Shown in pieces: positions 551-45,671 of a DNA stretch of 64,000 nucleotides (positions are counted from its first letter, which is position 1; each line of letters starts with the position of its first letter). Source of the DNA: Hormiphora californensis (taxonomy: Eukaryota > Animalia > Ctenophora). Location of the stretch: the NCBI GenBank assembly GCA_020137815.1, contig CM035357.1, forward strand, positions 1,922,001 to 1,986,000, given 5' to 3'. The position numbers were made by a program, and so were the translations under genes. The notes under the pieces are model-generated. The model did no database searches, was not told the origin of the DNA, and worked only from the letters and a program-made list of their open reading frames with translations.

Positions 551-3189
551 TCACATTTTCACCACCGTATTCTGTATCACAAGATTCCTCACATTACTCT
601 CCTCTCCCTCCGCTACTAGTATCATAATCCTCGGCAGAAAGATGGCCAGTAGAAACGCCATGCTAGCTAGAAACATGACGATAGCTCGGAGAAGAGCCTT
701 CAACAGGGGATCAGCTAAGGTATACCCCGTTAAAAACATGACACAACACAGCAATACTATGAGTGTTGCAGTGAAAATGTTGAGCGTTTCCTTGAAATTG
801 TGTGGAAACAGGCGCATTCTGAAGGCCATGATGAGGGAGAGGAGGAGAAGGGATATTGGCAGTAAGACAGGAATCATAGCAGTTACCATGGCAACTGTTT
901 CCGTAGCAACGGTACATATGGGGTTGATTACATCATGGGGTGTCGCCTGGTAATCCAGACGGACCCAACCTGGCCCAAGGACGACCAAGTTGAGAAACAC
1001 TAAAAACAGGACGGTGATTTGGCTGAAAATGTTGATGCTGAGCTGTCCTTTCTTTTTAAGTAAAAAGGAACATTTCGGAGTATCAAAGTTTTCCGAGCTG
1101 GTAAAAATTCCGTAGATTTTCCAGCACTTCCACGCTAGGTTAGTAGTGGTCATGGTGGTGAAGAGGATAAACAGGGTGTACTCAAGAGAGCACAGGCTGG
1201 CTGATAGAAGGGGGACAATTGAAGCTACGAATCCAATCATCAGACTAACTAGAACAGTGTAGAGGTATCCCACATCGGATGCTTTGATTACTGGACGAGC
1301 CTCATTACGGTAAATCACAACTCCGAACGAGATCGCTATCACCTCACCCACCGCGGACAAGAATATGCCACTGTATAGGAAGACTTTGCGTTGGCTAATG
1401 TGCTCCACTTCCACGGTGATACAAGATGTACCGTTGTCGGTACTGGATTGGTTGTCATGACAACTGCTACACGCCGCTGCGTTAGTTGTCATGGAGAATG
1501 TGTTAAGGGAACACTCAACACACTTCCAACAACAGGGTAACTCCGCAACATCATCGCCGGTGAAAAGCCGGTATGATCCAGGGGTGCAGTCTGCGGAACA
1601 CGTTCGCCCATGGGTTAGTCCAGATAGAAGGTCCGGGTTGGTGATATCAAGGTGATCAGGGGTGACCTTGCCAGCGATACCAGATCTCCCATCTGGACGG
1701 GAGATGAAGATGTCGTATCCGAACTGGATCACTCTGTCCTCAATGTTACCGTGGAGGGTTATATTTCTACCAAGCTCAACAGTTATATTGTCTTCTGTTG
1801 AGATGATCTTGGAGTAGAGAATGTTACGGAGAGCCATTGGACATTCAGGTGTTTGTGTTTCAAGTACTTCGGTAAGTTGTTCAATCAAAACTTGGGCCGA
1901 TATTTTGAAGAAGGGTACCCAACTACTAACAGTACATGGTCCATCGTCACATATGGAATCTTGTGCCTCTATGTAGTACTGATCTAACACCTCTCCAGTC
2001 TCATTCCAAGGTGCCGACAGAACCTCATTAATCTCAGGAATTTCAGCGTTGAGCAGTGCATGTGCGGTAAACAGAAGAGTGTTGGTAGACCCGATGATGT
2101 CTTTAAAGGATTCTACGTACTCATAACGGGACAAACTTGTCCCGAAGACGAACATCTTGTTCCGGAACCCTAGTTCATTCACCATGTATTCCAGTGTGAT
2201 CTTGGCTTGAGTTAGGCTATTATCTAGAAACACTTGAACATCAGCAACTGGTTCGTTTGTAGTTGCGTATGTCGCCTCAACTTCCCGTATCGCCTGATCT
2301 GTACCTGTCATTAGGGGTTTGTGGTAAAGTCTGATTTTATTGAAGTTGTCGCCCCCCAGCCCCAACTCATGCGTGTATGATATTTATAATTTTAAGGGGT
2401 AACAACTTTCAAAAATCATACTTTTAATGTTAACCGCTCACCTGTTAGTTGTGTTAGCCGGGCACAAAAACCCTGTCCCTTCTCCCTGTGTTTCTCGAAG
2501 ACGTACAGGGCATTATCCTCAGAGTAACTGTGATACCAGATATCAATGAACCGGTAATCAAAGTACTCCAGCAAGTGTAGAACCAACTTCCCTTCATTGA
2601 CCTCCGTGTCAATCATGGATATGAGGGTTGGGAAGTTGTCCGAGGTACTCAGCTCGGAGTCAAAGAAGTAGGATGCAAAAGTTGGGACTGAGAATGATGT
2701 TAGGGTGCTTGCGGCGTATTTTGTTAGATTCGCCCGATCTGGAGCGGTTGCTCCGACCACTTTTTCAACCCGAGCTATATTCGCAGCAGCAACACCGGTC
2801 TTTGGTAGATCCAGGCAACCATCGTAGATGAGATAGCCTAGGGTGGCATTTGTGCGTCGATAAAACTCCCCTGAAGCCCTCAGAACTGTGTCACGGTAGG
2901 CAAGGGCTCGTTGCAAACCTGATAGCGAGTTTGTTTCGAAAACGCACTCTTTCGTTCCGTTAACTGATATCATTGTTCTGGTATTGAATATCCCAGCAAG
3001 TATATAATCGCCATCCTTAGAGGCTAGGATTGAATCGGTGCTGCCACTGCAGGTGTTGTTTGTGTTTCCTAACCCGACACTCTGGCCAGAAGAAGAAGGA
3101 TTGTTGTTTGTAGTTGTTATACAGCTGGTTGGGACACTCCATAATGTACACCAGGAATATAGGAGTAGGATCAATAGGATACGATACAT
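551..3189 (-). CDS. Class C GPCR (mGluR/CaSR-like): signal peptide, Venus flytrap, Cys-rich domain, 7TM; exons 3189-2442 and 2304-551, about 833 aa
   Basis: GDYILAGIF and GYLIYDGC (VFT), CSADC...PCCWKCVEC...C (nine-Cys domain), PVIKAS and PHNFKET 7TM motifs; phase-1 GT-AG intron 2441-2305 joins the two ORFs in frame. The stop overlaps a possible donor (GTGAGA), so a further 3' exon is possible. Confidence 0.92.
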
Positions 3190-4343
3190 GTGTGCAGCTA
3201 TAATAATGTAATGATCAGATACACTTTACTAGGTGTCTTAAAAACCAGACATCTATTTTAAAGCAGATCTAGAATGGAGTATTGTAGAGAGTGCTCACTG
3301 CTCTATCCAGGAGTGTGAACATGGCTATTAACAAAATAGACGAGCAATTTTCAAAAAGTACAATTGTTTCACAATATTGAAGTAGATCTAGATAGACGAT
3401 AGAGCTCAAAAAGTACGTAGTGAATACCATTAAATAGAAACGTGGGGGTGTAGGGAGAGATACAGCTAGGACAGAGACTGAGACTAAGACATAGACAGAG
3501 AGAGCAACCCGGTGTGGAGGACCCAAAAACCAGTCCTGCCACACATATAATGGCAGCATAAATCACGTGAAACTGCTTCTGAAAGTATACAGGTAACGCA
3601 TATAACGGTCCGCAGCTTATTCATGTTCCGTGGACTATATTTGGGCGGGTGTCTGAAGGACTATTGTTTTAATTTTTTGTGTGTGAAAACGTTTGCATGT
3701 ACCCTGTTCTTAGAGTTCTTAGATGAAAATATGTTATATTCGTACAAACAATAAAGAGTCTGGCTGCGTTGAGAAGCTATAAGGAGACGAGTGTATAACA
3801 CTCTCTACTTATTTCCTTAGTCTCAAGGGACTGCGTTCTGACTCTCTAAACAATAGTATTAATGGAATAGATAACTAATACACGTACAACTAGTCGTACC
3901 GCTGATGACCCCATATATAAGATACACCGAGAATTATACACACACAAGCTATATGGTGCGTCTCGCATGTTTTAGCTCGATGTTCAAAAGTTACTCTAGT
4001 ATCTATCAAAGGAGTAACCACATAATTTTTCAAGAAAATCCCTGCTGTTTTCTCCCACCTCACGACAATCGGTAAGCTTAAAAGTCTACAGCTGCGGTAA
4101 TGATAGCATATTTAATTGTTCCGTTTTGAGACCACAATTTCGCTGATCTGAACGTGTAAAACGGAAATGTCTAGCATAAATTATTTCAATGCTGACATGT
4201 TTCAGGAAGACCGTTGATGGGAGAACAATCAGCTGACTATATTGCTCACCGGTTAGAATTATTCGGGGCCTGGCACCAGCTCAACATATGACACCAGCTC
4301 AAAATGACATGGACTCAACATGAAACCGTGGTGTCATTAATTG

Positions 4344-6683: not shown

Positions 6684-7632
6684 TGGTGGGAAGATATAGG
6701 ATATTTAGTCGGAGACACGTCTAAGATAGGAGATTATGAGGCACTTTATGATACCAGAAAACATCAGGAGGTGGTTGTACAGTGTACACTGCACAAGTCA
6801 GTGCTGAATGTTAACCCTGATTTTGGTGGTAGTAAATCGTGTTATATGTGTAATGTAGATCTGTCAGGACAATGCTCTGACCACAGTTCTCGTGCGCTCT
6901 GCGGTCAGGTCAATATGCTCTGACAGATGTAGATTTAAATCTGTCACATAGGTCGGGGAGACCATAGCAAATGATTTAGTACAATTTCTTGTAGCCATTG
7001 ATTACGTGTGCCACACTGCCACACTGCTTCACTTTGACACTCTTTGGCTCCCTAAATAAGTAGCTGACATTACCAGCACATGTGTACCTTGGTTACCTAG
7101 CAACATCAGTTATTATCGCCAGCCAGGTCTTTAAAACGCTACCTAACCAATGAACGCCCTTCAAAGCTACTTGATCCGCACGTGTTGGTAATGTTTTTTC
7201 GCTGATCTGTCCAAGTATGTGCTGTCTTTAGCTTTCTACTTATAGTCCTTCCAGTGCTCTCCATTTCGTTACAATCCCATCCGATATTTCAACCATACAA
7301 TATCCCATACAATATCTTAGAGAGAGACTAGAGAGTCAGGGTTGAGAGCTGTTACTTTCTTGTGTAACTCCGGACAATTACTAAGAAAGGGGAATATGCC
7401 GCACAGAGGAAGCAAAAAAAGAGAGTATTTTTGCACTGTTCGCATTGAGTTGGCTTCTAACCAGTATTGAAATTGTTGAAAACGACTAAAATGATGATCT
7501 TTGCTGATTGTTCGCCTCTTGCCACTCCCTTCTCCTCCGAAGGGATCCACCCTACCAGATTGATTGTTCTGCTCAACTCAAATTGACTCTTTATTTGCCA
7601 CTCATTCACTCCTCCGTTTTCTAGATCAGCAG

Positions 7633-8967
7633 ATGGCAGTGTTCAGTGAGGGTGGTGTAACACATCCTGACTTCCTAATCTTCCTCTGCTCCCTTCTACT
7701 TCTCCTCCTAGCAGTCACCCTCAACTCATTTGTCCTCCATCGCAACTACAAGAAACGTCCCTCCCTACCCCGGACTCTGTACATAATACTGGCCATTGCG
7801 GATATTTTGGTATGTGCAACCTTCTCAGTCGGATCCGCTTACTCTTCCTACACCCCAAAAATCAATAAGACCATCATCCAATGCGCTAAGAATGAAACAT
7901 ATAATGAAGTAATGTATGATGATTACTACTATATATGTGCAATTCAGCAAGCTAGATATATAACACTTGATAAACAAGTATTCACTGTTTTAGCATTTGG
8001 TGGCCAGTTAGCACCGGCCATAGTAACGGGAGTTTTCACCACAATACGGTTCATCAGCATCAGATTTCCTCTCCGCATCATAAACAAGAAGATGATTTTT
8101 GTGTTCCTGGGTGTCACAATTCCTTTTGCCTTTGTGGTTTTCATTGTTTGTTTCGCTGATACCGGAACATTCGAAACATCTTATCCCATCGCCCTGAACA
8201 TAGCCATGCCCCGGTTGGGTATGGATAAGCCTAGTAACATTGATAGCGGTGAAGGAGCACCTATGGGAAGAATGATAATGCTGAAAGGTGATGGAGGCAC
8301 AGGAGGTAAAGATGGAGGGAAGGATAATGGTGGAGGTATGTCGAATACCAGTGACAGTTCCGGAAAGGATAGTGGTGGGGGTGGAGGCAATAGTGGTGGG
8401 AGCGGAGGCAATGGTTCGACTGGAGGCAATGGTCCAAGCATGACGGAATTAGATTGCGGAGGGGACATGGGTGAATCCTGTTCAAATTACATCACTACGG
8501 TTATATCCCATATCATCGCCATATCCCCCACTCTGGCTATCCAACTGGTAGGACTGGTGGCTACTGGTCTCACCATCTGCCATCTCCTAAAGATGCACTA
8601 CAAACCAGATGTAACCGGGAGTAACCGACCCCGATCACACATCAAAGGAACCATCAAACTCCTGATCATGAATCTTGGTAGTCTCCTGTCATTCATTCTC
8701 TTCATTACAGTCATTGCCATGGCCGATGCCATCTCGAATGCGTCCAATGATGGCCGTTATGGGGAGTTTGTTGAGTCTTTTATCTTCCAGTATTTTACAT
8801 TCCAGCTCCTGCCAACCCTCACCTCCACCCTCAATCCACTGCTGTACATCGCCTTCACCAACGACACAGTGCTACCAAGTTGCCTGACCAGGTGGCATAA
8901 GAAGAAGACCCCCAGGACAGGCAACTCGACAATGGCTTCTAGGACAAGGGAGACTGTACTTAACTGA
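7633..8967 (+). CDS. Intronless rhodopsin-like (class A) GPCR, orphan, with Gly/Ser-rich second extracellular loop
   Basis: Seven hydrophobic segments, LAIAD (TM2), IRFISIRFP (DRY-equivalent), NPLLY (NPxxY); ATG at 7633 follows a pyrimidine tract plus AG. Confidence 0.9.
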   Translation: MAVFSEGGVTHPDFLIFLCSLLLLLLAVTLNSFVLHRNYKKRPSLPRTLYIILAIADILVCATFSVGSAYSSYTPKINKTIIQCAKNETYNEVMYDDYYYICAIQQARYITLDKQVFTVLAFGGQLAPAIVTGVFTTIRFISIRFPLRIINKKMIFVFLGVTIPFAFVVFIVCFADTGTFETSYPIALNIAMPRLGMDKPSNIDSGEGAPMGRMIMLKGDGGTGGKDGGKDNGGGMSNTSDSSGKDSGGGGGNSGGSGGNGSTGGNGPSMTELDCGGDMGESCSNYITTVISHIIAISPTLAIQLVGLVATGLTICHLLKMHYKPDVTGSNRPRSHIKGTIKLLIMNLGSLLSFILFITVIAMADAISNASNDGRYGEFVESFIFQYFTFQLLPTLTSTLNPLLYIAFTNDTVLPSCLTRWHKKKTPRTGNSTMASRTRETVLN

Positions 8968-13139: not shown

Positions 13140-13459
13140 ATTTATGAAGGAGCAGCCAATGTGATGTTTTATGAAGGAGTATGTGGTAGTTTAGGTTTCT
13201 TTTTCGACGTTATTTTGAATCAAAATGAATGTGTGAATGTAGATTAATTCTCTGTTTCAAAAACTTATTGATCTGAAATACTTTGTATCTGTCTTTCTAC
13301 AACTTCAAATAAGGCAACCGGATATGCCACATGCCACATGGCTCACGACATGTCTCATGAGAAATACTAATGCGCCATTGGAGCATCTAAAACATGGGAT
13401 AAACTAATACAATAAGTAACTCACTATCATAATTCAGTTTAGTTGGTTTTGTTAACGTG

Positions 13460-14081
13460 ATGTTGGTTGTTATTGTTGTTGCATCAATCCTTGCCATAGG
13501 TAAGTGACATAAATTAAACAAATTAAAAGCTGTATATTTGTCGTTGAGCATGACACTCACTCACTCACTCACTCACTCACTCACTCACTCAATCACTCCC
13601 CATAAAACAGCCACTCGATTGACAATTATATATATCACTGACCACTAATTTATTAGGCCATTCTGAATTTATGAGGATGTGCCCCTTGGAGTACAATGGT
13701 GCTCCTGCTGACCTTTCGTGCAGTGATGGAAAAACGATCTCAATTCTGAATTCAGAAATAGGTGCTCATGAACTCATCGAAGGTATTGTACCTCTTTTTC
13801 TCTCTTTATCTCACTCCCCCCCCCTCTCTCTCTCTCCCTCTCTTTCTCTATCATTCTCTCTCTCCCTCCTACTATCTCTCTCCCCTCCCACAGGTTGTAA
13901 CGAGGCTTACGACACCAAGTGCATGGTCGACCTAACGACCTCTCTAAGTAAACTTTGTAACGGGAAAGACTCCTGCCGCGTTTCAACGGAGGGAAAGGAT
14001 TACATAGGTGTGGCGAGCAACTTCTATTGTTCTGGAGTTATCCCTCACATTTATCTGGAAGTCGATTGGGTGTGCCAGTAA
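13460..14081 (+). CDS. Secreted SUEL/Gal-lectin-like protein, copy 2 (exons 13460-13499, 13657-13782, 13894-14081)
   Basis: Signal peptide plus LSCSDGKTISILNSEIG...LCNGKDSC...YLEVDWVC; same intron positions and phases as copy 1. Confidence 0.82.
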
Positions 14082-31190: not shown

Positions 31191-32011
31191 TAGGGTGTGC
31201 TATTTTTCCCAACTCATAAATCAAATCCAATTTTCACAAAGTTTACCCCTAGAATGAGTTCCTACGATCATTCTAAAACATTTGGTAAAAAAATTTTAGT
31301 CCTACCCTGGCCCAATTACGTGGGCCGATGTATGCCCATATATGGGCATATTCATATCAAAAAATGTTTTTTGGGGCGTTATTTCGAAAAAACCACACAT
31401 ATGAATCGCCTCATGAGAACCAGTACAACTATTATTTCCAGTCTGCACCTTCAGAACTCCATTTTATAATGAAAATTTTATTTTTTTTCATCTTTTTTTC
31501 TTGCACATTTTCCTACTTTGCAGTATTAGTTGAGACGAATTTTAACTTTTTGAGATTTTATTTGTCGGAAACCAAATTCCGGTTGTAACCGACTACTTTT
31601 GACCTGCTGAACACGATCCCGTTCATGAAAAAGCTCTCAAAATTGAAGAAAATGGCCAAAATGAACATTTTTAGTCAAAAATGAACATTTTTGGTCCAAA
31701 ATGAACATTTTCAGGTCAAAAATGACCTTTGGCTAACTTTCATGATACACATCCATTCTGATCGGTATCAAACCGCTGAACACGACCCTGACCATAAAAG
31801 TTGATATCAAGAACATGCCAAACACTGGTGTAAAACACACATATTTTCCTTTTTTCGGTAAAAAAGTAAACTTTTTTAATCGTCTGGCCCACGTAATTGA
31901 CATACACTATCCCAATTCCGTTTTCAGGATGTAGTAGACAATTGTCCATAGTTTCATATCTACCCTTAACCTTTTGGCCAAGTCGACAAAATTTTCACTT
32001 AGCACACCCTA
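31191..32011. mobile_element. About 820-bp non-autonomous DNA transposon, copy 1
   Basis: TAGGGTGTGCTA...TAGCACACCCTA TIRs; internal AAAATGAACATTTT tandem; highly similar copy at 32530-33348. Confidence 0.85.
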
Positions 32012-32529
32012 CTGTACCCCGATCAGCTGTCAGAGCATTGGCCTGACCCTATTCGAGCGGAACTGTGGTCAGAGCATTGGCCTGACAGCCGATCAGAGGT
32101 ACACGCCTGGAAACAGGCAGGTGGTAGTGCACAAATGGTGCCTCATCATGGTGAAGATGAACGCGCACTATCGTTCGGCGATTTAACCTATTCTGGGGAA
32201 ACCCAGTACCGTAAGACTGGTACAGTAGTACTAGTGCGCCTGCTGTTGGTGGTGACCTTCATGCTCTTTATCGGAACAGTTCTCGTCTGTCGACTCGTGT
32301 CTTCCAATGGAAGGGTACTACTAGGGGGTACCGGGGAAACCCGGCGCTACCTTGGTGGGACCTGACCGGGAGATCGAGCACGGCGCTCTGGGCAGCCATG
32401 TGTGTTGGTGACCTGAGGAGAGAATTGTGAAATCAAGGGAACGCTGCTCCCCAACGACAGCAAGTGGGTGGAAGTACGGGAGGTACACGACACACACACA
32501 CACACACCAACGTTGCACGGTGTACACAC

Positions 32530-33348
32530 GGTGTGCTATTTTTCCCAACTCATAAATCAAATCCAATTTTCACAAAGGTTACCCCTAGAATGAGTTCCTA
32601 CGATCATTCTAAAACATTTGGTAAAAAAATTTTAGTCCTACCCTGGCCCAATTACGTGGGCCGATGTATGCCCATATATGGGCATATTCATATCAAAAAA
32701 TGTTTTTTTGGGGCGTTATTTCGAAAAAACCACACATATGAATCGCCTCATGAGAACCAGTATAACCATTATTTCCAGTCTGCACCTACAGAACTCCATT
32801 TTATAATGAAAAATTTATTTTTTTAATCTTTTTTTCTTGCACATTTTCCTACTTTGCAGTATTAGTGGAGACGAATTTTTACTTTTTGAGACTTTATTTG
32901 TCGTAAAGCAAATTCCGGTTGTAACCGACTAATTTTGACCTGCTGAACACGATCCCGTTCATGAAATAGCTCTCAAAATTGAAGAAAATGACCAAAATGA
33001 ACATTTTTAGTCAAAAATGAACATTTTCAGGTCAAAAATGAACATTTTCAGGTCAAAATGAACTTTGGCTAACTTTCATGATACACATCCATTCTGATCG
33101 GTATCAAACCGCTGAACACGACCCTGACCATAAAAAGTTGATACCAAAAACATGCCAAACACTGGTGTAAAACACACATATTTTCCTTTTTTCGGTAAAA
33201 TAGTAAAAATTTTTAATCGCCTGGCCCACGTAATTGACATACACTACCCCAATTCCGTTTTCAGGATGTAGTAGACAATTGTCCATAGTTTCATATCTAC
33301 CCTTAACCTATTGGCCAAGTCGACAAAATTTTCACTTAGCACACCCTA
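32530..33348. mobile_element. About 820-bp non-autonomous DNA transposon, copy 2 (direct orientation)
   Basis: Collinear with 31191-32011 over its whole length. Confidence 0.85.
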
Positions 33349-33664
33349 GTGTACAGTCAGTGTCTGACAGCACGCAGGTAACACCGTGCCCAAATAATTC
33401 AGTGATTAACAGAGATTTTGTGGAAAGGGGAACTCTAATTATACACGTGAATCATGGTTATACACTGACACAAGGATTATAGGATACACCAACATATTCT
33501 CTGCTCTCTCTCAACGCTCCTTCCCCTCAGATCCTATTTTCCCTTTTTTCACGTGTCACAAGGTCCACAGGACGTATACCAGCACCCCCTCATCAGCTCT
33601 TTTACGAAATGTTTTGCTAAAGTCTTTACAGTATTTGTATAATCTCTAAAACACCACGCTCAAA

Positions 33665-36600
33665 TTAGTTCTTCTTTCCCTTCCTCTTTTTCCCCTTCCT
33701 GCCCCCCTCATTATATCCCTTCTTCTTTTCCTCACACAGCCCACAACTATCCGCACAGAACCTCTTCATCATCCGTGGCTTCTTCTTGCATGCTCCCTGA
33801 GCCGCCATAATGTCACAGTGATGCTTCTCCTTACTTCCTTCCTCCCGTTCCTTGCAGTGTACTCGCACTTCAGGACCTGGAATAACACATTGGTTACGAA
33901 ATAATACATTGGTTATTATATTACGAAATAACCCCTTTAAGGGGTCGCCTCGCGCTGGCAAGGGAGGGGTAACTTCGTTACCAAAATAATACAGATAACG
34001 AGTTCTGATTGGTTGTTTACTTGTTTCGGTCGGTTCCTGATCTAAAGAGTAAAGAAACACTGGACGTATTCAACTTACTTAGAGAATCGGGATCTGACTT
34101 TTTCTGATACTGGTTATTCACTTTGAAGCCTGTAAAAGTGATAAATTAAAGAAACCGCTGTCAGAGCATTTTCATGACCCTATTCTCACATCGGGGTGCG
34201 TGAGAACCGTGGTCAGAGCATTTAATCAATCAATTAATCAATTAATTAATTAATTAATCAATTAATTGGCAGCTGACACAGGAACTTACTGAGCCAGTAG
34301 CCACAGTTGAGGTTACTACAAACATTAGCACGTGCAACGTGCATGTATCCTCCCAGGCCCCAGTTAGTTCCCCAACTGTTCCGCATATTGAAATAGTCTT
34401 TGGTGTAACCCACAAGGGTCATGGCATGGTTCACGTTTGCTCCTCCGCAATTCTCGTTGTAAACCCCTGGAGAATGAGGTTGTTAGTTCGTCTGTGCAGT
34501 GTGTGTGTGTGTGTAGTGTGTGTGTGTATTATGTAGTGTGTACTATACACAGTCACGCAGTGTTGCTGGTATAACAGTGGACGGGGAAATGATGGTCAGA
34601 TTACAGATCAGTGGCCAATTACCAATCCAATTCAAAACAAGCAAAAAAGCCGATTTAGCATTGAAATTTCTGTACTAGAACAGTATACTGTTTCAGGGCG
34701 GTGGAGTCCTTCCCCTCACCCCATAAATATACCGCAAAAATATACCCCATAAATACACCTACATTTCAAGAATTACAAAGTAATACAAGATTTAATAATT
34801 GTTATAAATCTTGTAATCTTGTATTACTAATCAGCTCCAGAATCTTGATCCTGTCGAGCGCTTTACCAGAAATCCCTTTTAAATAAGCAAAGATACCTTT
34901 CAAGATTCGTTCATTCAAATTACCTTTACTATACTTGTAGAAGTTGTTGCTGACATACATTGCAATTGCAATGGGTCCATGGCTAGCAATCAACGCTTCC
35001 ATCCCAGCGACACCGGGATTAAATTTAGAACCCACGCCCAATTGTGAGAACATTCCCTTGTAAGCATTGGGATGAGAATGGTAGTTGCATGTGTTGTCTT
35101 TCCCATTGTACCCGTAGTCCTTTTTTTTCGTCATGTGCCGTGTCGTGGCGACCCATTCGTACGGAGCGTCATACCAGCCACCCTTGCAGCCGTCCTTCCT
35201 TCCTTCGTAAGAGCAATCGAGGATTTCCTAGGGACGAAGACATCAGTGACTTATTATTGACTAGGGGAATTATTATGGGGGAGTTGGGGGACTTATTATG
35301 GGGGAGTGCAGGATATATTTAGGCAAAATTGACAGTCAGAATGTGTGTGACCGAGAGTAATGTGAGTAGTGACCGGGTATCATGGTTATGTATGTGACCG
35401 GATATTACCGACCTGATCAGAGAGAGGAATGAGGTTTCCACTTCCCACTTTGTAGGCGTACTCAAGAGAAACCGTCTGAAAATTGAAAGCGTATTAGAAT
35501 GGTGTAAAATGGTGTATCAAATCGTGCGACAGTGCAGATCGGGTGGGCACCGCCAGACAGGAATTATGCGACTCAAATATATATTAAGTTGGTTAATTGT
35601 TTTATCATTTACAGGAACCGACCGAAACAAGTAAACAACCAATCAGAACTCGTTATTTAGGTCACGTGACTGGTTATCAGCCAATCAGGGACCAGTATTT
35701 CCTGATTCGGTCGGTTCCTGATCATTTATATACCGATGCAAAAGCCCAACATGATCCGCAAGTCCCCTGATTCTTGCCCGGGACTACATATCCCTTTTTC
35801 ACCCAACAAAGCTCATCGGGTGTATTTGATCGAATGAGGCGTGATGGTGGACCGCTCTCTTCAGCATTTCGTGCTATGGGGGGTGAAATGAGGGGTGAAA
35901 TGAGGGGTGAGGTGAGGTGAGGTGAGGTGAAATGAGGGGTGAAATGAGGGGTGAAATGAGGGGTGAGGTGAGGTGAGGGGTGAGGTGAGGTGAGGTGACT
36001 GGTGAGGTGAGGTGAGGTGAAATGAGGGGTGAGGTGAGGACATCTTACCTATATCAGTGAGATTGACACTGATTCCCAAATGTAACTTCATCTCTTCATC
36101 ACTCTGAGTGTGAAAAACAATAAATCAGATATTATATTATTATCCCTTCGTATCGTCCGATCTACTCAAACTTTCAATAGAAAAGTCAGTGTATGTCATA
36201 TATCACGTGACCAAAATAATTTGGCCCCACCACTTTCAAAACTTCCCCTACTATACATGCCTGGACACAACAACAAACAACCAAAGACAAACTAAGTTAT
36301 ATATACTCCATTTTTTTTCAACTGTTCACCCCCCAAAGTCGTGTGCGGAATTGTTTTGCGCGTTTATCACATGTTAACGTGTAGCGCACGCAGTGTTAAT
36401 TAAAATATCGCACGCGCACGAGTTGAGGGGTGAACAGTTGAATAAAAATGGACTTTACCATGGCAGTGAATTGGTTGACGGATTCAGCGTATGATGATAG
36501 CCCATGTGCATAGTTCCGGTTGTGCAATCTGCAGTGCCGGACGTTCTTGATAAATGTCAGTGCTCGTGTCGCTCTGTGGAAATTGGTTTGAGTTCGACGC

Positions 36601-37167
36601 ATTTCCTATCTATCCCTAATAAAACCTTGATGTGTGCTTCAACTCCCTTTTCAATAAGAAGAGTATGAACAGAATCCCTGTTACCCGGCCCAGTCTCCAC
36701 TCCCCAACCCCCGGTCCCAACCCCAGTCTCCACTCCCCAACCCCCGGTCCCAACCCCAGTCTCCACTCCCCTACCCCCGGTCCCAACCCCAGTCAACCCA
36801 CAAACTTACTCTTCTTCGACTGCCATTTCTTGCATCTGAGGACTCATAGAACCAAAGTTAGCAGTCACAGACACAGTTTTCTTCTTGTAGTAAGTTTTCA
36901 TATATTTGTCATACGCGTCCTGATAAAATGGAGAGAATTTAGAGTCACAAATAAAGCATGTATGACAACACACCCGCAGAACCAACACACCAGCTACCGG
37001 TACATCAACAACAAAAAACGTCAGAAACTCACGGCAAAGCTGTTAGAGTTGAGAATCTCATCGCTGACCCCCTCTGCCACGACTATGTCGTCTTCTTGGT
37101 CGGGTTCGAAGATGTAGCACTGGCAGGTAGCTGCAAGCAGTGCTACAACAACAGCTTGTACCCACAT
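33665..37167 (-). CDS. Papain-family (C1A, cathepsin L-like) cysteine protease with signal peptide, I29-like prodomain and C-terminal ShK domain; about 10 exons
   Basis: [13 protein letters not shown] (catalytic Cys), [24 protein letters not shown] (His), RNSWGTNWG (Asn); prodomain VNQFTAMSDEE; last exon C...C......GAC......[12 protein letters not shown] is ShK. Confidence 0.92.
35612..35720. mobile_element. 109-bp hAT-type MITE, copy 2, in a cathepsin intron
   Basis: Same TIRs as 15791-15899, opposite orientation, perfect 8-bp TSD ATCATTTA. Confidence 0.93.
35878..36040. repeat. Intronic GAGGT / GAAATGAGGGGT tandem repeat
   Basis: direct inspection. Confidence 0.85.
36684..36793. repeat. 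Intronic 33-bp tandem repeat, about 3 copies
   Basis: CCCCAGTCTCCACTCCCCAACCCCCGGTCCCAA unit. Confidence 0.9.
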
Positions 37168-37509
37168 GGTGGCTAATGAAAGGGTGAAAATGTTATAAAA
37201 ACTAGGGCGGACTCTTAAAAAAAGAGATTTTGTTGAGTCATATCACGGAATCTTTTCTGTTTTCTGTCACACTTGCACTCTCAGAGAAGCTTGCGCGCGG
37301 ATCTTTTACCAGAAAATACGTTCCGCGCCCTACACACACAAAAGCGGGACAGAGTTTCAAAATTTACATTCGGGCAGCTCTGCAGCAGACCGCAGTGAAC
37401 TGAAATCTCACTATTGATAGTGAAGTCGTTTATTCCTTGCCCTTCTTGGGCTCAGGCTTCGTAGACACAGGCGTCCCAGTTGTAGGCTTCTGGCTTAGGC
37501 GTCGTAGGC

Positions 37510-37745
37510 TCATGAGTCATGACTCATCAGGAGCATCTGAAAGACTTGCTACCACGTCTGACGTCGTGACATGACTGCATGGTTAAGGGTAGAGGGAGTA
37601 CTGTGAAAGTTGACAACACGTCACCATGACGTCATTGGTCACGTGACTTGGTCACGTGGTGTGGTCACTTGCTGTGGTCACGTGACATATAACGGACCCT
37701 AATCTTGTACACCAAATTTTCCCAATTCTATCTGTCACGTGAGTT
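37510..37745 (-). promoter_or_regulatory. Putative cathepsin promoter with clustered E-box (CLEAR-like), CRE and AP-1 motifs
   Basis: GTCACGTGAC at 37638 and 37677, GTCACGTG at 37651 and 37734, TGACGTCA at 37627, TGAGTCATGACTCA at 37513. Confidence 0.55.
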
Positions 37746-37989
37746 GTAACCCTAACTCTAATGATACCTACACACACTCACACACACACAATCTGCAATC
37801 AGCCCAAGGCGTTATTAGGTCACCTGGGTGATTAGCTGGAAGGGCAGCTGGAACCGTTACAACATCAGACTCGATTAAAGCGATACCAAACACTGACCGG
37901 TAATTGGGTTGATTGATATTTAAAACCTCTGTTACAACACAAACATGCCAGTCAGATTCAATCTTCCCGGTAGCGGTGTACGCCCCTGA

Positions 37990-38154
37990 AGTCTTGAGTG
38001 CACCATTTGTTTCGAAGTTGTGGAGCAGGTTACCACACCAGTTATTGTGTATGAGTGTGCCCATTGGGCTTGTGCAGCTTGTGCTTGTCGATGGCTGCTC
38101 ACCCGTTCTGCTATCTGCCAGATGTGCCGTCGTGTGGTTAAACGTATACTTTGA
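37990..38154 (+). pseudogene. C3HC4 RING finger remnant, absent from the ORF track
   Basis: Manual translation SLECTICFEVVEQVTTPVIVYECAHWACAACACRWLLTRSAICQMCRRVVKRIL* has all eight ligands; in-frame stop just upstream. Confidence 0.75.
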
Positions 38155-38192
38155 ATGGGTGGATGGATGGGACCATGCCACCACCTATCTCG

Positions 38193-39235
38193 TATGGTAT
38201 TGGAGGAGAACAAGGGATATATACTTGAATTGTTTCCTCCCGAAACTCACGACAAGTTTTCGGATTTCCCTCCAGCTCCATCACACACGGGAATAACCGA
38301 TGACATGCTCTCTCCATTTTCGAGGTAAATATTCTCTGATTCTTTCCATCACTCGCTCGCGTTCTCTTTCATTTCTATCCTTTACCCCCCCCCCCCCCAG
38401 AGATGCGAAGATCGGAAAAGGGATGGTAAAGAATGTTAAGCTTGCCCCGACTCTGCTCAAAAAATCCAATTACGTGGTGCACCTCACCAATCTGAAATTC
38501 TATATTGAAGAATGTGTTCGTGTTACTAAGGTGCATAGGGCCATCAAATTTAATCAGAGATGTTGGCTCAAGCCATACATTATCGCTAATACAGAGAGAA
38601 GGAGGCAGTCTGTGGACGCCGTCGAGAAAGCGTTTTGGAAGTTGTTGAATAACAGTCTTTTCGGTAAGTTATTTTCCTAATTTATTTCCAATTCATCTTT
38701 TAATCTCCGAATTTTAATCTAAATCTCTGAATTTAAATCTAAATTTTAACAGGGAAAACGATAGAATCGGTGCGAAAGGGAACATCAATTACGTTGGTGA
38801 ACAAGGAGACCGCCGCTTCCAAACCCAACTATAAACGATTCAAGATACTCTCTGACACCTTAGTGGCTGTTGAAAGGGTTAAAACAGATACCATCTTCGA
38901 CAAGCCAATATATGTAAGTTTTAAAGTGATTTTTTTTCATTTTTTTTTTCTATTAATTTTTTTAATTTTTTTTCATCAACCGACTGAAAAGTTTTTTGCA
39001 TAAATTATTCCTTTTTTTCAGATTGGTTTTACGGTGCTTGAATCCAGTAAGCTCCTGATGTTTGATTATCATTATCGAGCAATTCTTTGCAAACACAGAT
39101 TCATTTTTGTATATAACCTAACTACAAATGATCTGTGCGGAACGCAGATGCCCCTCCTGAAGCATCATTTGGATCTTTCCAATTAGACCCGATCACACCC
39201 TCTGTATTCTGATGGGCGTTTCAAGGATGAACTGC
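38193..39235 (+). pseudogene. Polinton/Maverick-type protein-primed DNA polymerase B fragment, decayed, with three spliceosomal introns (38325-38400, 38664-38752, 38914-39021)
   Basis: GYILE...HDKFSDFPPAP, KLAPTL..K.NYVVH, WLKPYI..NTERR, FWKLLNNSLFG^KTIESVR (motif B), KPIY^IGFTVLESSKLLMFDYHY, frameshifted NTDSF (motif C), DLSN*..HPLYS, FKDE. Confidence 0.88.
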
Positions 39236-39423
39236 TGGTTCCAGCGGAAAATGGCCGCTGCTGGGATTCCTCGAGCGATAGCCAGCAGAGAGTTAACTCA
39301 TAATCGCTAACTGGAGGCTCTCAATTCAAGGGGCGACTATCAGTTAATTAATATCCAACAGACCAATATCCGTTTGAAAGCTCACACTCTTTACACCATC
39401 ACAAAAACAACAACATCAAAACA

Positions 39424-39605
39424 TGTGCCCGGTTTGCGATTCGCAAGTTGCGAATTCTCTGTGCTGGATACTACTTCACCCATCTCCATCTACCCCTGCG
39501 GAGACTGGTCCTGTTTTGAATGGGTACTCAAAAATCAAAACGGAACACGCTCCCACTAACCACTTGTCCTACGGTGCCATCGCTCTACCAGAAAGGTGTT
39601 GGTGG
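39424..39605 (+). pseudogene. Possible second, more degenerate RING-like remnant
   Basis: TTSPISIYPCGDWSCFE parallels TTPVIVYECAHWACAA of the first RING; Cys ligands are split across frames. Confidence 0.35.
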
Positions 39606-41457
39606 TAAGTTACTAAGTTGTCAGACGGATTATTGTCTCTAATTTGAGTAATAAAGCAATCAAATAGTAATTAAGTAATCAAATGAGTAACCCCTTCTTC
39701 TTTCAGACCCACGGTAAACCAATATCTAAACTATGCAACTATGCTGTGGTTTTCAAGTTGTTCAAGATACCCACGAACCAGAGATTTCATCCAACGATTC
39801 TATGGGAGATAATTGCGGTTGATAAGGAGCTTAATCTTTTAACATCACAGAGGAGCTACAAAGATGAGATGGCGGCTTACGAGTAGAATTTTCAGTTGGT
39901 GGTCCGAGTGGCCAAGGACCAGAAGATTGGCTAATGAGGGAGAATGGAGGACGGACAATGTCATTTGTGAACATATTTTCTGAGAGAGTGTCAGCGGAGG
40001 TGTTGAGGCCAAAACAACAACACTGACTATTGACTATGTACTAAACAAGGAGTAAAATTTGTTTTTTTGAAGTAAGCTCTTATATAATGAACAACTTTGT
40101 GTGAAATATCTATGAAGAACAATGAAGATATTAAATATTCTACTCTAAATCAACCATTGTTTAGCACTTTGTTACTACTTTTGTACAAGCTAACCACTTG
40201 CTCGACGGGTTGTTGTGGTTCTTAATAAAAAGGGTTTTGCGATATTTTCCATGGTCAATGCTCATAGCGGGTGGACCGCAGAGAATATCGTTAACCCCAA
40301 AGGGACTTTTGTTGATAAGGCTGAAGGCGGGACTGACAATTTCAAAAGCCCAGGGACGTCGCTGGGCCTAGCGTGTACCTGTGTAAGCAAGGTCTAGGCG
40401 CTGCAAGCCCCGCTGGGGGTCGAGGATAACAATAACAATAACAATAACATTATACATATTTAAATCGCTTTTGAGCTATATAATGCTATTCTCGATCAGC
40501 TTAAACAGCGTCCTCTCGATAATAGCAAGCTTTCTAAAGCGCTTCATCGCTGAAATAACCTATAGACATTCGTCCTCGTCGTCATAGATAATAAATTATA
40601 TAAAAATAAAAACGGACTTAGATAATTAATAAATAAGATACAAAAGACAGACTGAACTCCGATGGACACACAAATACATGCAACACACACACACACACAC
40701 ACGTCATACACATACACATTCATACAAACACAAGCAAGTACTTAACATACGAACAATTAAGCACACAACCAAATTCACCAACGTCCAACGGAGTCCAGAG
40801 ATAATCAACCCTACCACATACTGAACAAAATAAAGAAATAAACGCTAATTGAGTGTTGTCCTCATTACTCATTAGTTCATTGTGACTAGGACTCGCTTTG
40901 TCTTGGATTATTATTATCATGGTTATTTGTTATCATGGAGGAATATCAGTTTCACACTTAGGAGATACCATGTAGGATTTCAGGATTTAGGAATTTACTT
41001 TAGGTCTTTTAGTTCTGAAAATAAGGTGCTCTGGAGGGGGTTAATCTTCATAGTAGAAGCCTCCAAGAGCAATATAGCGCTGTGAATTGCGTAGCCAAGA
41101 CTACACAATTCACAGTCCCATTGTGTGAAAAGTCAACTGTACACGTCAAACAGTTGCCAAAAGGCGTATCTACAAGTAAGTCAGTGTCTAGATCTGTCAT
41201 GGGTGGGGATTCTTTTTTTTATTCTCACACACACTTTTTTCTCACATTATTTTTCTGACATCCCTCTTTCTTTTTTTAACTTTTACTACCTCACATTCGA
41301 TCATGTATTTTTCCGTTTTTTGCTGAGGAGGACGAAACATACAGAAACATTTCAATAATATCTACTCAGTACTCTATCTCCCATGACCCCGTCTTGAAAG
41401 ATCAATATTCAAACCCATATTATCCATCACTCGCAACTACACACATATAATAACATG

Positions 41458-44369
41458 CTACTCAGAGAAGGCCTTGGAAAACAACAGTGTTTTTAGATCA
41501 GTTTTGAACCTCTGTAAAGTCCTAGATCGACGGAGCTCCCGCGGAAGATTGTTCCATAGCTTAGGCCCTGATACACTGAAAGCCCTTTCCGTTGTTTTGT
41601 ATTTGGGATGCGGAGTTTCAAGAAGAAGATCATCATAATCTGCACGAAGTGTCATTGGTTTTTTCTTCCTCTTTTCCAGAAGGCCAGTTAGGTATTCGGG
41701 TGCAAGGCCGTTCAGACATTTATAGACCAAAACACAGGTTTTGAAATTGATCCTTTCACTCACTGGTAGGAAATGTAATGCCTTACGCAACGTCGTTGTG
41801 CCTTGCCACCTCCTCTGTCCATAAATGAATCTAGCTGCTGCATTTTGTACCTTTTGTAACTCAGCAACATTCCGTTTAGTCATCCCAGACATCAGAGAAT
41901 TGCAGTAGTCTATTTTTGAATGAACTAAGCTGCATACCAATATTGTCCTAAGCTTCCGAGATAGCTTTCCGGCAATTCGCCACAGATTAACCAGAGTAGA
42001 TTTACATGACCTGACCACAGCCGTGACGTGCTCATCTAAGGACAGCTTCGAGTCAAAGTACACCCCGAGGTTCTTCGCCGAACTCGTTACCAATGAGGGC
42101 CCACTATCTTCAAACAGCTGCATAGAGTCAACAGAACTACTACCTCTCGGGGACAAAATCAGTACTTCAGTCTTAGTTGGGTTAAGTTGAAGGAAGTTTG
42201 TCGTGAGCCAGGCCTGTATATCAGAGACACAACGCCTTAACTTTTGTTCTACCTCTGAGATATCATCCGAGGAATATGCCGCATAGACCTGTGTATCATC
42301 CGCATAAAAGTGAATACCAACACCATGTCGATCAGCAATGGCTTCTAGCTCAGTCGTGTAACAAATGAACAATATCGGTCCTAAAATAGACCCCTGTGGA
42401 ACTCCGATGGATAGTTCAGCAAGGGCTGACTTCATATCCCCCAACACCACTGCAGCATTACGCCCCGTTAAGTAACTCTGAAACCAATTCAGAGTAGTCC
42501 CCTTTACTCCATACAACTTTTCTAGCCGCTTCAGAAGTATCACATGATTCACTGTATCAAAAGCAGCACTTAAGTCTAACAACAACAGTACTACCTTCGA
42601 CTTGTCATCAGTCAGAGTCAGTAGATCATCAAAGATCCGTAAGGTGGCAGTTTCGCAACTTTTGTGTCGACGATATGCAGACTGTTTCTTCGAGAGTAAA
42701 TTGTTATCCTCCAGGTGCCTTACAAACTGGTCCGCTGCACACTTCTCTATTAGCTTTCCAAGGAACGGAAGATTACTCACCGGTCGATAGTTCCCCAAGT
42801 CATCCGGGTCAAGATTTGCCTTCTTGATGGTTGGACGAATCAATGCCGTTTTTAAAGCCGTAGGAAAAACCCCCGATGACAAGCTATCATTAACTATTTT
42901 CGACAAGATAGGAAGTAGTTCACCGAACAGTTTTCGTACAAAGGATGTTGGTATAGGATCAAGGGTACAGTGTTTCGTGCTCATTTCCATGATGGTAGAC
43001 CGAAGCACTTCATCAGAAACCGGCTCAAATTTGAAAATCGGAACAGATGATGGTGAGTCACTTTGTGTAGTCATGGAGACAGGTTGAACGTGATTGTGGC
43101 ACTTCTCCTCCATTCGTCGATAGATTTTCTCAACCTTCCCTTTAAAAGCTCCCATGAAGGTGTCAGCAAGCTTGACTTTTTCAATGTTCCCAGGCATGAC
43201 TTCAACATTTTCCCTCCCAGAAGGTGGTTCGAAGTTTGCCAAGTAGCCCGAGGGTCATGCTGTTGTTCTTCGAGACGAGCCGCGAAGTAGTTTTCTCTTA
43301 CTCCCGTCAGGATTTTATCAGTTTCCTTCTCCTGTGCCTTACAGTCCTCAAAGAAGTTGAGTATCACAACAGGGTCTGTTTTGGTCCGAAGAATTGCCCT
43401 ATACTTCCTTTCTTTCCTCCTTCTTTCCCTTCTTGCCCCTTGGCAGATCTCATAGTTCTGTGTGAACCATTTATTACTGCGAGTTTTAACCTTCCTAGTA
43501 ACCACGGGCGCCCGACTATCCATAAACCCCGTCAACACCGAGACATACAGCTCAACACACTGGTCCAGGTCATCAGGTAACTCATCACAAAGATCCGACT
43601 GAAGAATGTCTTCCCTAAGATCCTCAATGTTAAGGTCTTTCATTTTTCGGCTTGTAACTAGCTTAAACTCACTGTTAGAACTACAGCCAGCCACATTTAC
43701 AGAGAAGCTCACTAGTGAATGATCAGGAAGAGCAGGTGCCCTATAAGTTTCCAGTCCGTCCAACGCCGTAAGGTCTGCATCCCTGGTTAGCACCAAATCA
43801 AGTGTGCCACCCCTCACATGCGTAGGCCCGATAACATGTTGAGACCATCCCTCCGACAGAATAAGCGCTTTAAACTTCTGTGTGAATCGGTCAGTATCAT
43901 CTTGGAACCTAACATTAAAGTCGCCCATGACAACAGGAACACCGCCCTTTGATACAAAGGAATTCAGATAGCTGCCAAACTCAGTTATGAAGTGAGTATA
44001 GTCATTCCCCGTGCGATAGATAACAGCAAGCCGGACTCCAACACTGCCCTTCACGAAGATCTCCAGACATTCAAAAGACTTTGTGGATGTTTTACACGTA
44101 GTAAACTTGATCTTATTCCGAATAATGAACGCCACTCCACCCCCTCGCTTCCCTTTCCTCGGTGCATTAACCAGAGTGTGCCTCCAATCCCCCACCTCCG
44201 CCGCCAGTGAAGATTCATCCAAGTTAAGCCACGTTTCAGTAAGAGCTAGAATCCCAAGTCCATTTTCGACCATCATTCCCATGACCTGATTAACCTTGTT
44301 CCGCAAGGAAAAACAGTTGCCAAGTCCAACCTTAATGGTCCTGCACCCTACCTTCCCTAGATCAGTCAC
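41458..44369 (-). CDS. LINE ORF2: APE endonuclease plus reverse transcriptase, one frameshift near 43215
   Basis: LTETWL, GGGVA, MGDFN, TLDLV, DHSLV (APE); NYRPVSNL, LDLSAAFDTV, GVPQGSILGP, YADDT (RT); LHFLPVSERI, AFSVSGPKLWNNLP. Confidence 0.93.
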
Positions 44370-44386
44370 ACGCCCATCTTCACCAA

Positions 44387-45505
44387 CTAGTTTTTTGCAT
44401 TCCTTAGTTTAAGAAGGAAAACAGGACAGTCAGGCGAACCGGCATTGTGTGAGTTGGCATTACCCTTCAGCTTAGGGTCACTAGCATTTTTACAGTTAGT
44501 GCAACACACTCTCCCCCTGTTCTTACAGTCCTTTGTCTTGTGGCCTTCCGCACAGAACATACATGTAGCCTGTGGTTGCTCGCATTCCCACGCTTTGTGG
44601 CCAAATTTCTGGCAACGGTAGCACTGTGGAATATAGTACCGATCCTCCACCCTACAGGAAACATTTCTAACGAAAAGTTTTCCTCCCTTGACCAACAAGT
44701 CCCGAAGAGCGCAAGAAACTCTCAACCCCACGTTAACCCGTTCTCTCGCTCTCGATTTCCCAACATAGACAACCTCCAAAGTATGCCCCTGGTCTATTAG
44801 AGAGCTCACCTTAGAGTTCTTCATCCGAATCATCTCAACTATGGCACTATCCAAATCACTCCGGCCCATATCAACTGGAAATTCTTCCACGGGAAGTGGA
44901 AAGTCCTTAACCGTAACCTTAGGCAGTTTAATAGATGTCTTATAGGTCGCTGCCTCGGGAAGAACTGCCTTAAGCTGACTCTCAGCAGATTGAAGCATGT
45001 CCTGATCAGGTAAGGCAATTATTACATCGCCATTGGCCTCCGCCCTCATGAAGGACACAGGTGTCTCCTTTAGAGCCTCAGAAGCTCGTTTTACAGCCGT
45101 ATCTCCCGCATTACTAATCGTAATTTTTGCAGCAGGTTTCTTAAGCACTTCAGCAAATGACCCACCGAGATTCTCACCAAGACTCGCCCTTAACCCCACT
45201 TCATCACCCCGACGTAAGTCCATTTCTCCAACAAGTTTTTCTACTATGAAATCAGCGTGCTTACCAAGCTCACTCACAACACATCGAGCAATCTCCTCTC
45301 CACTAGCCCCGGTCTGCCCAAACCCCTTAGCCTTCCCGCTATCCACCGAATCAAAACACGGGGGGCATAGCCAGCATAATCCCACGAGTTTACTTACTTC
45401 GACGGGTACGGGCGGATCAGCATCATCTCGCTCCTCTTTGCACATCAAACATACCATCTTCTCTGTAACTGCTATCTCTGCAGCCGCCTTTCTCGTTTTT
45501 GTCAT
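44387..45505 (-). CDS. LINE ORF1: truncated PHD-like N-terminus plus gag-like CCHC zinc knuckles
   Basis: CLMC...WLCPPC; QCYRCQKFGHKAWEC, CMFCAEGHKTKDC, CTNC...H....PDCP. Confidence 0.9.
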   Translation of the reverse strand: MTKTRKAAAEIAVTEKMVCLMCKEERDDADPPVPVEVSKLVGLCWLCPPCFDSVDSGKAKGFGQTGASGEEIARCVVSELGKHADFIVEKLVGEMDLRRGDEVGLRASLGENLGGSFAEVLKKPAAKITISNAGDTAVKRASEALKETPVSFMRAEANGDVIIALPDQDMLQSAESQLKAVLPEAATYKTSIKLPKVTVKDFPLPVEEFPVDMGRSDLDSAIVEMIRMKNSKVSSLIDQGHTLEVVYVGKSRARERVNVGLRVSCALRDLLVKGGKLFVRNVSCRVEDRYYIPQCYRCQKFGHKAWECEQPQATCMFCAEGHKTKDCKNRGRVCCTNCKNASDPKLKGNANSHNAGSPDCPVFLLKLRNAKN

Positions 45506-45671
45506 CGTCTAGATGGGGAATTGAGGTGCCTCACGACAACCTCAATAAATAGTTTTACGTTGTAGTTGATGAAAGTTTGAAGGAGGCGAAGTCCTCGAAA
45601 AATGATGACGTAAAGTTTGGCAAACGCTGCTGAGTGCTGACCGCAGCGGTTTAAAAATTAAAAAAGTAAAG

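Follow-up and report, generated by a model that had tools for sequence, protein, structure and literature searches.

A truncated and decayed protein-primed DNA polymerase remnant with three GT-AG inserts in Hormiphora californensis, probably derived from a Polinton/Maverick family with a host-spliced polymerase

The window analyzed here is a 64,000-nucleotide stretch of the Hormiphora californensis genome (GenBank assembly GCA_020137815.1, contig CM035357.1, positions 1,922,001 to 1,986,000 of the forward strand), and all coordinates below count from its first letter. At 38200-39409, on the plus strand and in alternating frames, it carries pieces of a protein-primed family B DNA polymerase (pPolB). 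The first surviving exon remnant (38200..38324, recognized by spliced and profile alignment) covers profile columns 833-875, which lie past motif A. It is followed by an exon with motif B (KLLNNSLFG) in an open frame (38401..38663), which has a weak PF03175 match (E 0.02), by a second open exon between motifs B and C (38753..38913), identified by alignment to homologues, and by a decayed last exon (39022..39409), identified by profile search, which has internal deletions and lacks the extreme C-terminus. Together the pieces span columns 833 to about 1186 of the 1217 columns of the profile; motif A and the entire N-terminal part, the 5' two-thirds of the gene, are missing. The initial annotation had described this copy as decayed, with a frameshift at motif C and stops, and indeed motif C is out of frame, its residues being encoded near 39085-39110, and stops follow at 39184 and 39308. 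The remnant continues beyond position 39235 to about 39409 (profile match, E 0.001), and no more pPolB pieces turned up when all six frames of the 64-kb window were searched with the profile. The window copy makes no working polymerase.

Directly upstream of the remnant, on the same strand, is a RING-finger ORF with one internal stop (37945..38154; PF13639, E 2e-6). Downstream is a second, frameshifted RING-like remnant (39423..39604, plus strand), which resembles the first and is without a Pfam match, followed by a candidate GT-AG intron of 102 nt (39605..39706, plus strand), recognized from the sequence. These two related, decayed RING-finger ORFs (within 37450-38200 and 39423-39886) bracket the pPolB remnant, and the upstream RING-finger region appears to be multi-copy in a second sample. 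A host gene for a papain-family cysteine protease, its introns filled with repeats, lies on the opposite (minus) strand at about 34260-37170. A 45-nt perfect inverted pair (33995-34039 and 35612-35656) is part of a very abundant short repeat, and the sequence at 31194-33354 is duplicated in tandem, repeating about every 1,336 nt. Elsewhere, the minus strand carries what we take to be an apparently intact non-LTR retrotransposon (41458-45508), with a zinc-knuckle ORF1 and endonuclease and reverse transcriptase frames. Two long, nearly intron-free ORFs presumably encode a class C GPCR-like protein (551-3225, minus strand) and a seven-helix receptor with a Gly/Ser-rich insertion (7564-8967, plus strand).

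The pPolB pieces are separated by three inserts, all on the plus strand. Intron 1 (i1, 38325..38400; 76 nt, GTAAAT...C12-AG, phase 2) has an AT content of 51% and is not AT-rich, unlike the other two. Intron 2 (i2, 38664..38752; 89 nt, GTAAGT...TAACAG, 79% AT) splits the Gly codon of NNSLFG^KT (phase 1), and intron 3 (i3, 38914..39021; 108 nt, GTAAGT...TTTCAG, 81% AT) lies in phase 0 at KPIY^IG. The initial annotation had reported three GT-AG introns of these lengths, with GTAAAT and GTAAGT donors, whose removal restores one frame and two of which split conserved motifs. The same lengths and ends were recovered unaided by a purpose-written spliced aligner, which was supplied with no coordinates and used a profile of 29 uninterrupted pPolBs, each of at least 1,000 aa; it called exactly i1, i2 and i3 and retained them under three penalty settings. 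Extra upstream exons that the aligner proposed under cheap penalties were rejected, because the profile search gives them no support. Homologues without interruptions are contiguous precisely at these points (P0003 across i1; P0003, P0004 and P0009 across i2; P0004 and P0009 across i3). None of the inserts is readable as protein, as each contains an in-frame stop and two of them shift the frame; they have no likeness to each other or to the rest of the window and no duplicated flanks. When each insert was shuffled 20,000 times, GT..AG ends arose in 0.04% (i1), 0.035% (i2) and 0.08% (i3) of cases, figures that ignore a few bases of freedom in gap placement. All three resemble U2-type introns in their GT-AG ends, GTRAG-like donors and pyrimidine-rich acceptors, and their removal restores colinearity. 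The observation that three inserts interrupt a Polinton/Maverick-type pPolB is thereby confirmed. No joints skipping the inserts were seen in DNA contigs, which cannot demonstrate their absence; an RNA-like run (X7) contributed 7 short records, which cover neither the pPolB locus nor the neighboring host cathepsin gene.

The type of polymerase is indicated by both domain matches and predicted structure. P0028, a member of the clade to which the window copy belongs (see below), matches Pfam DNA_pol_B_2 at 45.1 bits (cut-off 25.8), and the cellular PolB family (Pfam DNA_pol_B) is not among the matches listed for the window or for clade members. The predicted structure of another clade member, P0018 (pLDDT 90), has 9 matches at E<=0.001, with phi29 polymerase in all of them, and matches archaeal and yeast (Pol alpha) B polymerases only at E>=0.29. 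A PDB sequence search with P0028 returned zinc fingers only. Searches for exon 2 homologues gave 10 of 42 candidates, 3 of 3, and 4,144 representatives at E<=0.001, of which the best 150 were listed; the named homologues among the matches listed are uncharacterized arthropod proteins, and long homologues carry Endonuclease_7 and DNA_pol_B_2 domains. These matches and the modeled phi29-like fold assign the polymerase to the protein-primed kind found in Polintons and adintoviruses. Grouping with ordinary cellular B-family polymerases, the outcome that the initial annotation had named as fatal to its reading, did not materialize.

The remnant stands alone. With the ORFs of its relative L029 and 81 capsid proteins as queries (0 matches), no integrase, capsid, ATPase or protease was found in the 64-kb window, and no long inverted repeat brackets 37150-40500. 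The core genes and terminal repeats that the initial annotation had proposed to look for nearby are thus not there; the core genes are present instead in L029. Because no inverted repeat brackets it, we regard the locus as a Polinton-derived fragment and an incomplete element. We weighed the CACGTG-rich sequence at 37550-37760 as a possible terminal remnant and discarded the idea, since it has no match to the end of L029 and the window contains 20 copies of the motif.

Two samples, with six DNA runs between them, contain all or part of the stretch. In the second sample, contigs retain i1 (X5 record 12 and X6 record 23) and i2 (X5 record 14). Between this sample and the window there are 0 substitutions in 245 nt of the decayed last exon versus at least 22 differences in exon 2, counted among the 40 that were listed of 62 differences in all. 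The differences concentrate in two exon 2 patches (38411-38650), and the introns and the dead last exon are nearly unchanged. Read in the polymerase frame, 18 of the 22 exon 2 differences are synonymous; read in the two alternative frames, 4 and 2 are, respectively (P 5e-6 even under a transitions-only expectation). Such divergence is not expected of a dead locus. Most likely, either a different member of the family, one shaped by selection, was the source of the patches, or the short contigs stem from more than one copy; gene conversion of exon 2 from a working family member is possible. Either origin of the patches would imply that working members existed in the ancestry of the species. We rejected a one-haplotype insertion, for which an X1 contig depth of 25 over the remnant against 36-44 might speak, because contig depth is not copy number.

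Synonymous bias in exon 2, together with a position among host genes and the lack of any other core Polinton gene in 64 kb, is what might be cited for a domesticated host gene that arose from a pPolB and gained its introns as host genes do. However, the fragment is truncated at both ends, its catalytic motif is frameshifted, its decayed 3' part recurs in the second sample without a substitution, and its relatives reside in full elements or multi-copy clusters. We consider domestication highly improbable. The initial annotation had offered two origins, a domesticated gene and a host-spliced, Polinton-like lineage; the first finds no support here, and the second is favored by the company that the window copy keeps in the phylogeny.

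Relatives were gathered by a scan of metagenomes, which confirmed 329 stretches, of which 80 were kept; a viral scan added 3 more, for 83 loci. In a FastTree phylogeny of 253 rows the window copy pairs with P0012 (support 0.93) within an 18-row clade (0.894) that includes L029. A narrower 12-row clade, consisting of the window copy, P0012, P0154, L029, P0022, L028, P0165, P0169, P0014, P0018, P0028 and P0257, has an SH-aLRT of 97.4 and an aBayes of 1.0 in the last topology of an unfinished IQ-TREE search on 57 hand-picked rows of the 253; with P0103 added, its FastTree support is 0.954. The pPolB phylogeny that the initial annotation called for thus places the window copy in a supported clade with a 15-intron Polinton. 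The same clade also holds P0028, which is uninterrupted over 1,325 aa and has 13 cluster members, many of them on contigs of 60-650 kb, as well as P0018 and P0022, which are uninterrupted from site 1 onward. Because these intronless or intron-poor members nest there, intron number varies within the clade from 0 to 15, and the "intron-rich lineage" of the initial annotation holds for L029 but does not describe the clade as a whole.

L029 is a near-complete Polinton on a 13.9 kb contig (1-13863), and L026 is nearly identical to it. Its pPolB gene, cut by the contig start, contains 15 GT-AG introns of 87-211 nt, none of which is readable as protein and whose GC content is 0.285 versus 0.406 in the exons. 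With the introns removed it has 1,176 codons and 0 internal stops, versus 72 and 115 stops in the other frames. Between L029 and L026, 16 of 21 exon substitutions are synonymous and there are 0 indels in 2,857 nt, versus 3 indels in 1,506 nt of intron, a pattern by which the L029 exons appear to be under purifying selection. A 37-nt call and a frameshift at the end of the L029/L026 pPolB are artefacts, the last exon being open. Downstream of pPolB on the opposite strand are the virion and packaging genes and the integrase: a Peptidase_C48 protease (E 0.003), a capsid of 430 aa whose model is of low quality (pLDDT 51, TM about 0.26) and whose top Foldseek matches are all double jelly-roll capsids (E 1e-10), a probable penton named from its position and size without a family match, a packaging-type ATPase with a Pox_A32 match (E 0.03), and an integrase of the rve family, recognized in both exons (E 3.5e-5 and 0.015) on either side of an 89-nt GT-AG intron. 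The left end of the element is cut off and the right end is palindromic at 13269-13842. The capsid, penton, protease and ATPase ORFs have 0 introns; all 16 introns of this one element fall in the polymerase and integrase (P 2e-4 against a uniform spread that includes the four virion/packaging ORFs). As a guess, introns in replication but not virion genes might reflect tolerance in lowly expressed early genes.

The capsid also bears on the host. It has 81 homologues and is 85% identical to a cluster that holds Mnemiopsis leidyi KAL5272719.1 and KAL5249223.1, which points to a comb jelly as the likely host of the L029 lineage. P0197, a Mnemiopsis gene model that seemingly fuses a penton-like N-terminus to a capsid, is probably a mis-spliced Polinton annotation. 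No further loci of the L029 clade were confirmed among viral contigs (43 stretches with the capsid alignment and 4 with the P0028 query) or among genome contigs (49 stretches).

The comparison of intron positions that the initial annotation had suggested is informative for i1, partly so for i2, and leaves i3 unique so far. Across profile columns 820-1060, 77 of 84 rows have no intron call. The i1 position (column 875, phase 2) is that of intron 14 of L029/L026 and is common to 2 of the 83 loci; the i2 or i3 position is found at the DNA level in none of the 83. L029 lacks introns at the i2 and i3 sites, and i3 was seen in no relative examined. For i2 there are protein tails. Several exon-sized proteins (P0012, P0014, P0154, P0101, P0103, P0131 and the P0019 cluster) lose homology after NNxxFG with a read-through that resembles a GT donor. 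P0012 is 64% identical to the window copy, and its tail ends in the same shifted-frame residues as those that follow i2 in the window; P0014 and P0165 also start at the i1 acceptor and appear to have sites 1 and 2. Judged by eye, the i2 site of 169 proteins is contiguous in 103, flagged in 30 (many of them contiguous with variant residues), the end of the protein in 7 and without pattern in 29. From these tails, the i2 position would be common to P0012, P0014, P0154 and the P0019 group.

Shared positions need not mean shared ancestry, and the introns may be real and spliced yet gained independently at proto-splice hot spots, with no intron-rich common ancestor of the window family and L029. 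Donor-like tails after FG also occur in scattered branches outside the clade (P0101, P0131 and P0056), so the i2 site may be one of the hot spots at which introns are gained in parallel. The i1 sites of the window and L029 are both proto-splice-like AG|R, and the two polymerases are only about 45-50% identical. The intronless P0028 and P0018 are placed between the window and L029 branches, i2 and i3 are absent from L029, and sporadic non-triplet, AT-rich GT-AG inserts were called in the unrelated loci L042, L009 and L080. Against this, i1 matches L029 in both column and phase inside one supported clade, and sites 1 and 2 both seem to be occupied in P0014 and P0165. We regard independent gain as a possibility to be taken seriously, though not the one we favor. 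Other pPolBs outside the clade (P0029, P0071, P0084, P0096, P0088 and P0117) begin or stop at points that look like intron boundaries (NAV^, KLL^, FQ^VDL), which suggests that intron-bearing pPolBs arose in several lineages. In-frame calls of 36-105 nt in L002, L034, L036, L039, L068, L079 and L083 are probably protein insertions and were not counted, nor was an unreliable call at column 887 in L028/L030.

A different history would have the inserts enter the copy after integration, as introners or other host insertions that the active element never needed. Precedent comes from dinoflagellates, whose eupolintoviral elements, according to the available portions of Gozashti and Corbett-Detig (PMC12166617), gained introners mostly post-integration, and i3 is found in no other locus. 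However, the inserts are unlike each other, the rest of the window and the L029 introns (beyond a 22-nt AT-rich match) and lack duplicated flanks. Among all 18 introns (3 in the window and 15 in L029) there is no family likeness and there are no flanking repeats, only short AT-rich matches; neither similar intron families, inverted ends nor duplicated flanks, the marks of introners, were found, and each insert occurs only once in the window. No selection would have stood behind three insertions with perfect splice ends in a gene already dead, and the relative L029 combines 15 introns with purifying selection on its exons. Such late insertion is very unlikely in our view and, like domestication, fits worse than descent from an active element.

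We therefore return to that descent and hold, with good confidence, that the locus is a truncated, decayed pPolB remnant with three GT-AG inserts, likely from a Polinton/Maverick family that likely lived in comb jellies and whose polymerase transcripts the host likely spliced when the element was active. Polintons replicate by protein-primed DNA synthesis. The parent element would have been integrated or episomal in the nucleus and transcribed by the host RNA polymerase II, and the host major spliceosome would have removed the introns from the pPolB transcripts (and, in L029, from those of the integrase). The polymerase would then have copied the element from DNA to DNA by protein-primed synthesis, so that introns would pass to every new copy. 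The positions in common would on this account be inherited rather than gained in parallel, with repeated gain or loss producing the range of 0 to 15 introns. The window copy would later have lost its 5' two-thirds and then decayed.

The dead fragment is of value as a marker of this lineage. A pPolB in up to 16 exons is fragmented by ORF-based tools and appears as pieces of 60-130 aa in protein databases. An intron-split pPolB lineage would show element expression by way of the nuclear spliceosome, and would offer a compact system for following intron gain and loss among related mobile elements. More tentatively, and with well under even odds, comb-jelly Polintons may still be mobile, introns may have colonized their replication and integration genes repeatedly (from 0 to at least 15 in pPolB) and left the virion genes intron-free, and splicing may let the host gate the transposition module, in a layer of animal polintoviruses that is invisible to ORF-based surveys.

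Published accounts describe a different picture. Intact vertebrate Mavericks have intronless core genes, in agreement with Kapitonov and Jurka 2006, according to the accessible text of PMC8097293, and the nematode Maverick is described in the accessible text of bioRxiv 10.1101/2022.07.12.499685 as having introns only in captured cargo genes, its core genes being intronless. Surveys of endogenous polinton-like viruses have relied on gene callers made for prokaryotes, the reason given being that endogenous viruses "do not contain introns" (PMC10120064, in the portion available). The available sections of PMC8502044, PMC11296320, 10.1101/2023.08.22.554363, PMC12220804, 10.64898/2026.10.13.758929, PMC12859917, 10.64898/2026.07.28.741278 and PMC5718144 make no mention of core Polinton genes that carry spliceosomal introns. 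In the literature outside subscription journals, Repbase and supplements, we found no published intron-split pPolB and no ctenophore Polintons.

The family described here resembles animal Polintons/Mavericks (polintoviruses; proposed adintoviruses) in its DNA_pol_B_2 protein-primed PolB with a predicted phi29-like fold and, in the relative L029, in its rve integrase, ATPase, cysteine protease and double jelly-roll capsid. It differs in that the polymerase gene has from 3 introns (in the fragment) to 15, whereas the core genes described in the accessible accounts are intronless. With the introner-invaded eupolintoviral elements of dinoflagellates it shares spliceosomal-type inserts in polinton-like elements; in the available text of PMC12166617, however, the introners belong to repeated transposon families and were acquired mostly post-integration, whereas here the inserts are unique sequences, the exons appear to be under purifying selection and the clade is linked to animals. 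Intron-rich mirusviruses are likewise dsDNA viruses with many short GT-AG introns, which the portions available of PMC12768974 read as nuclear, spliceosome-dependent expression; introns in the polymerase and integrase with intron-free virion genes would, if true, be the reverse of the arrangement in those viruses.
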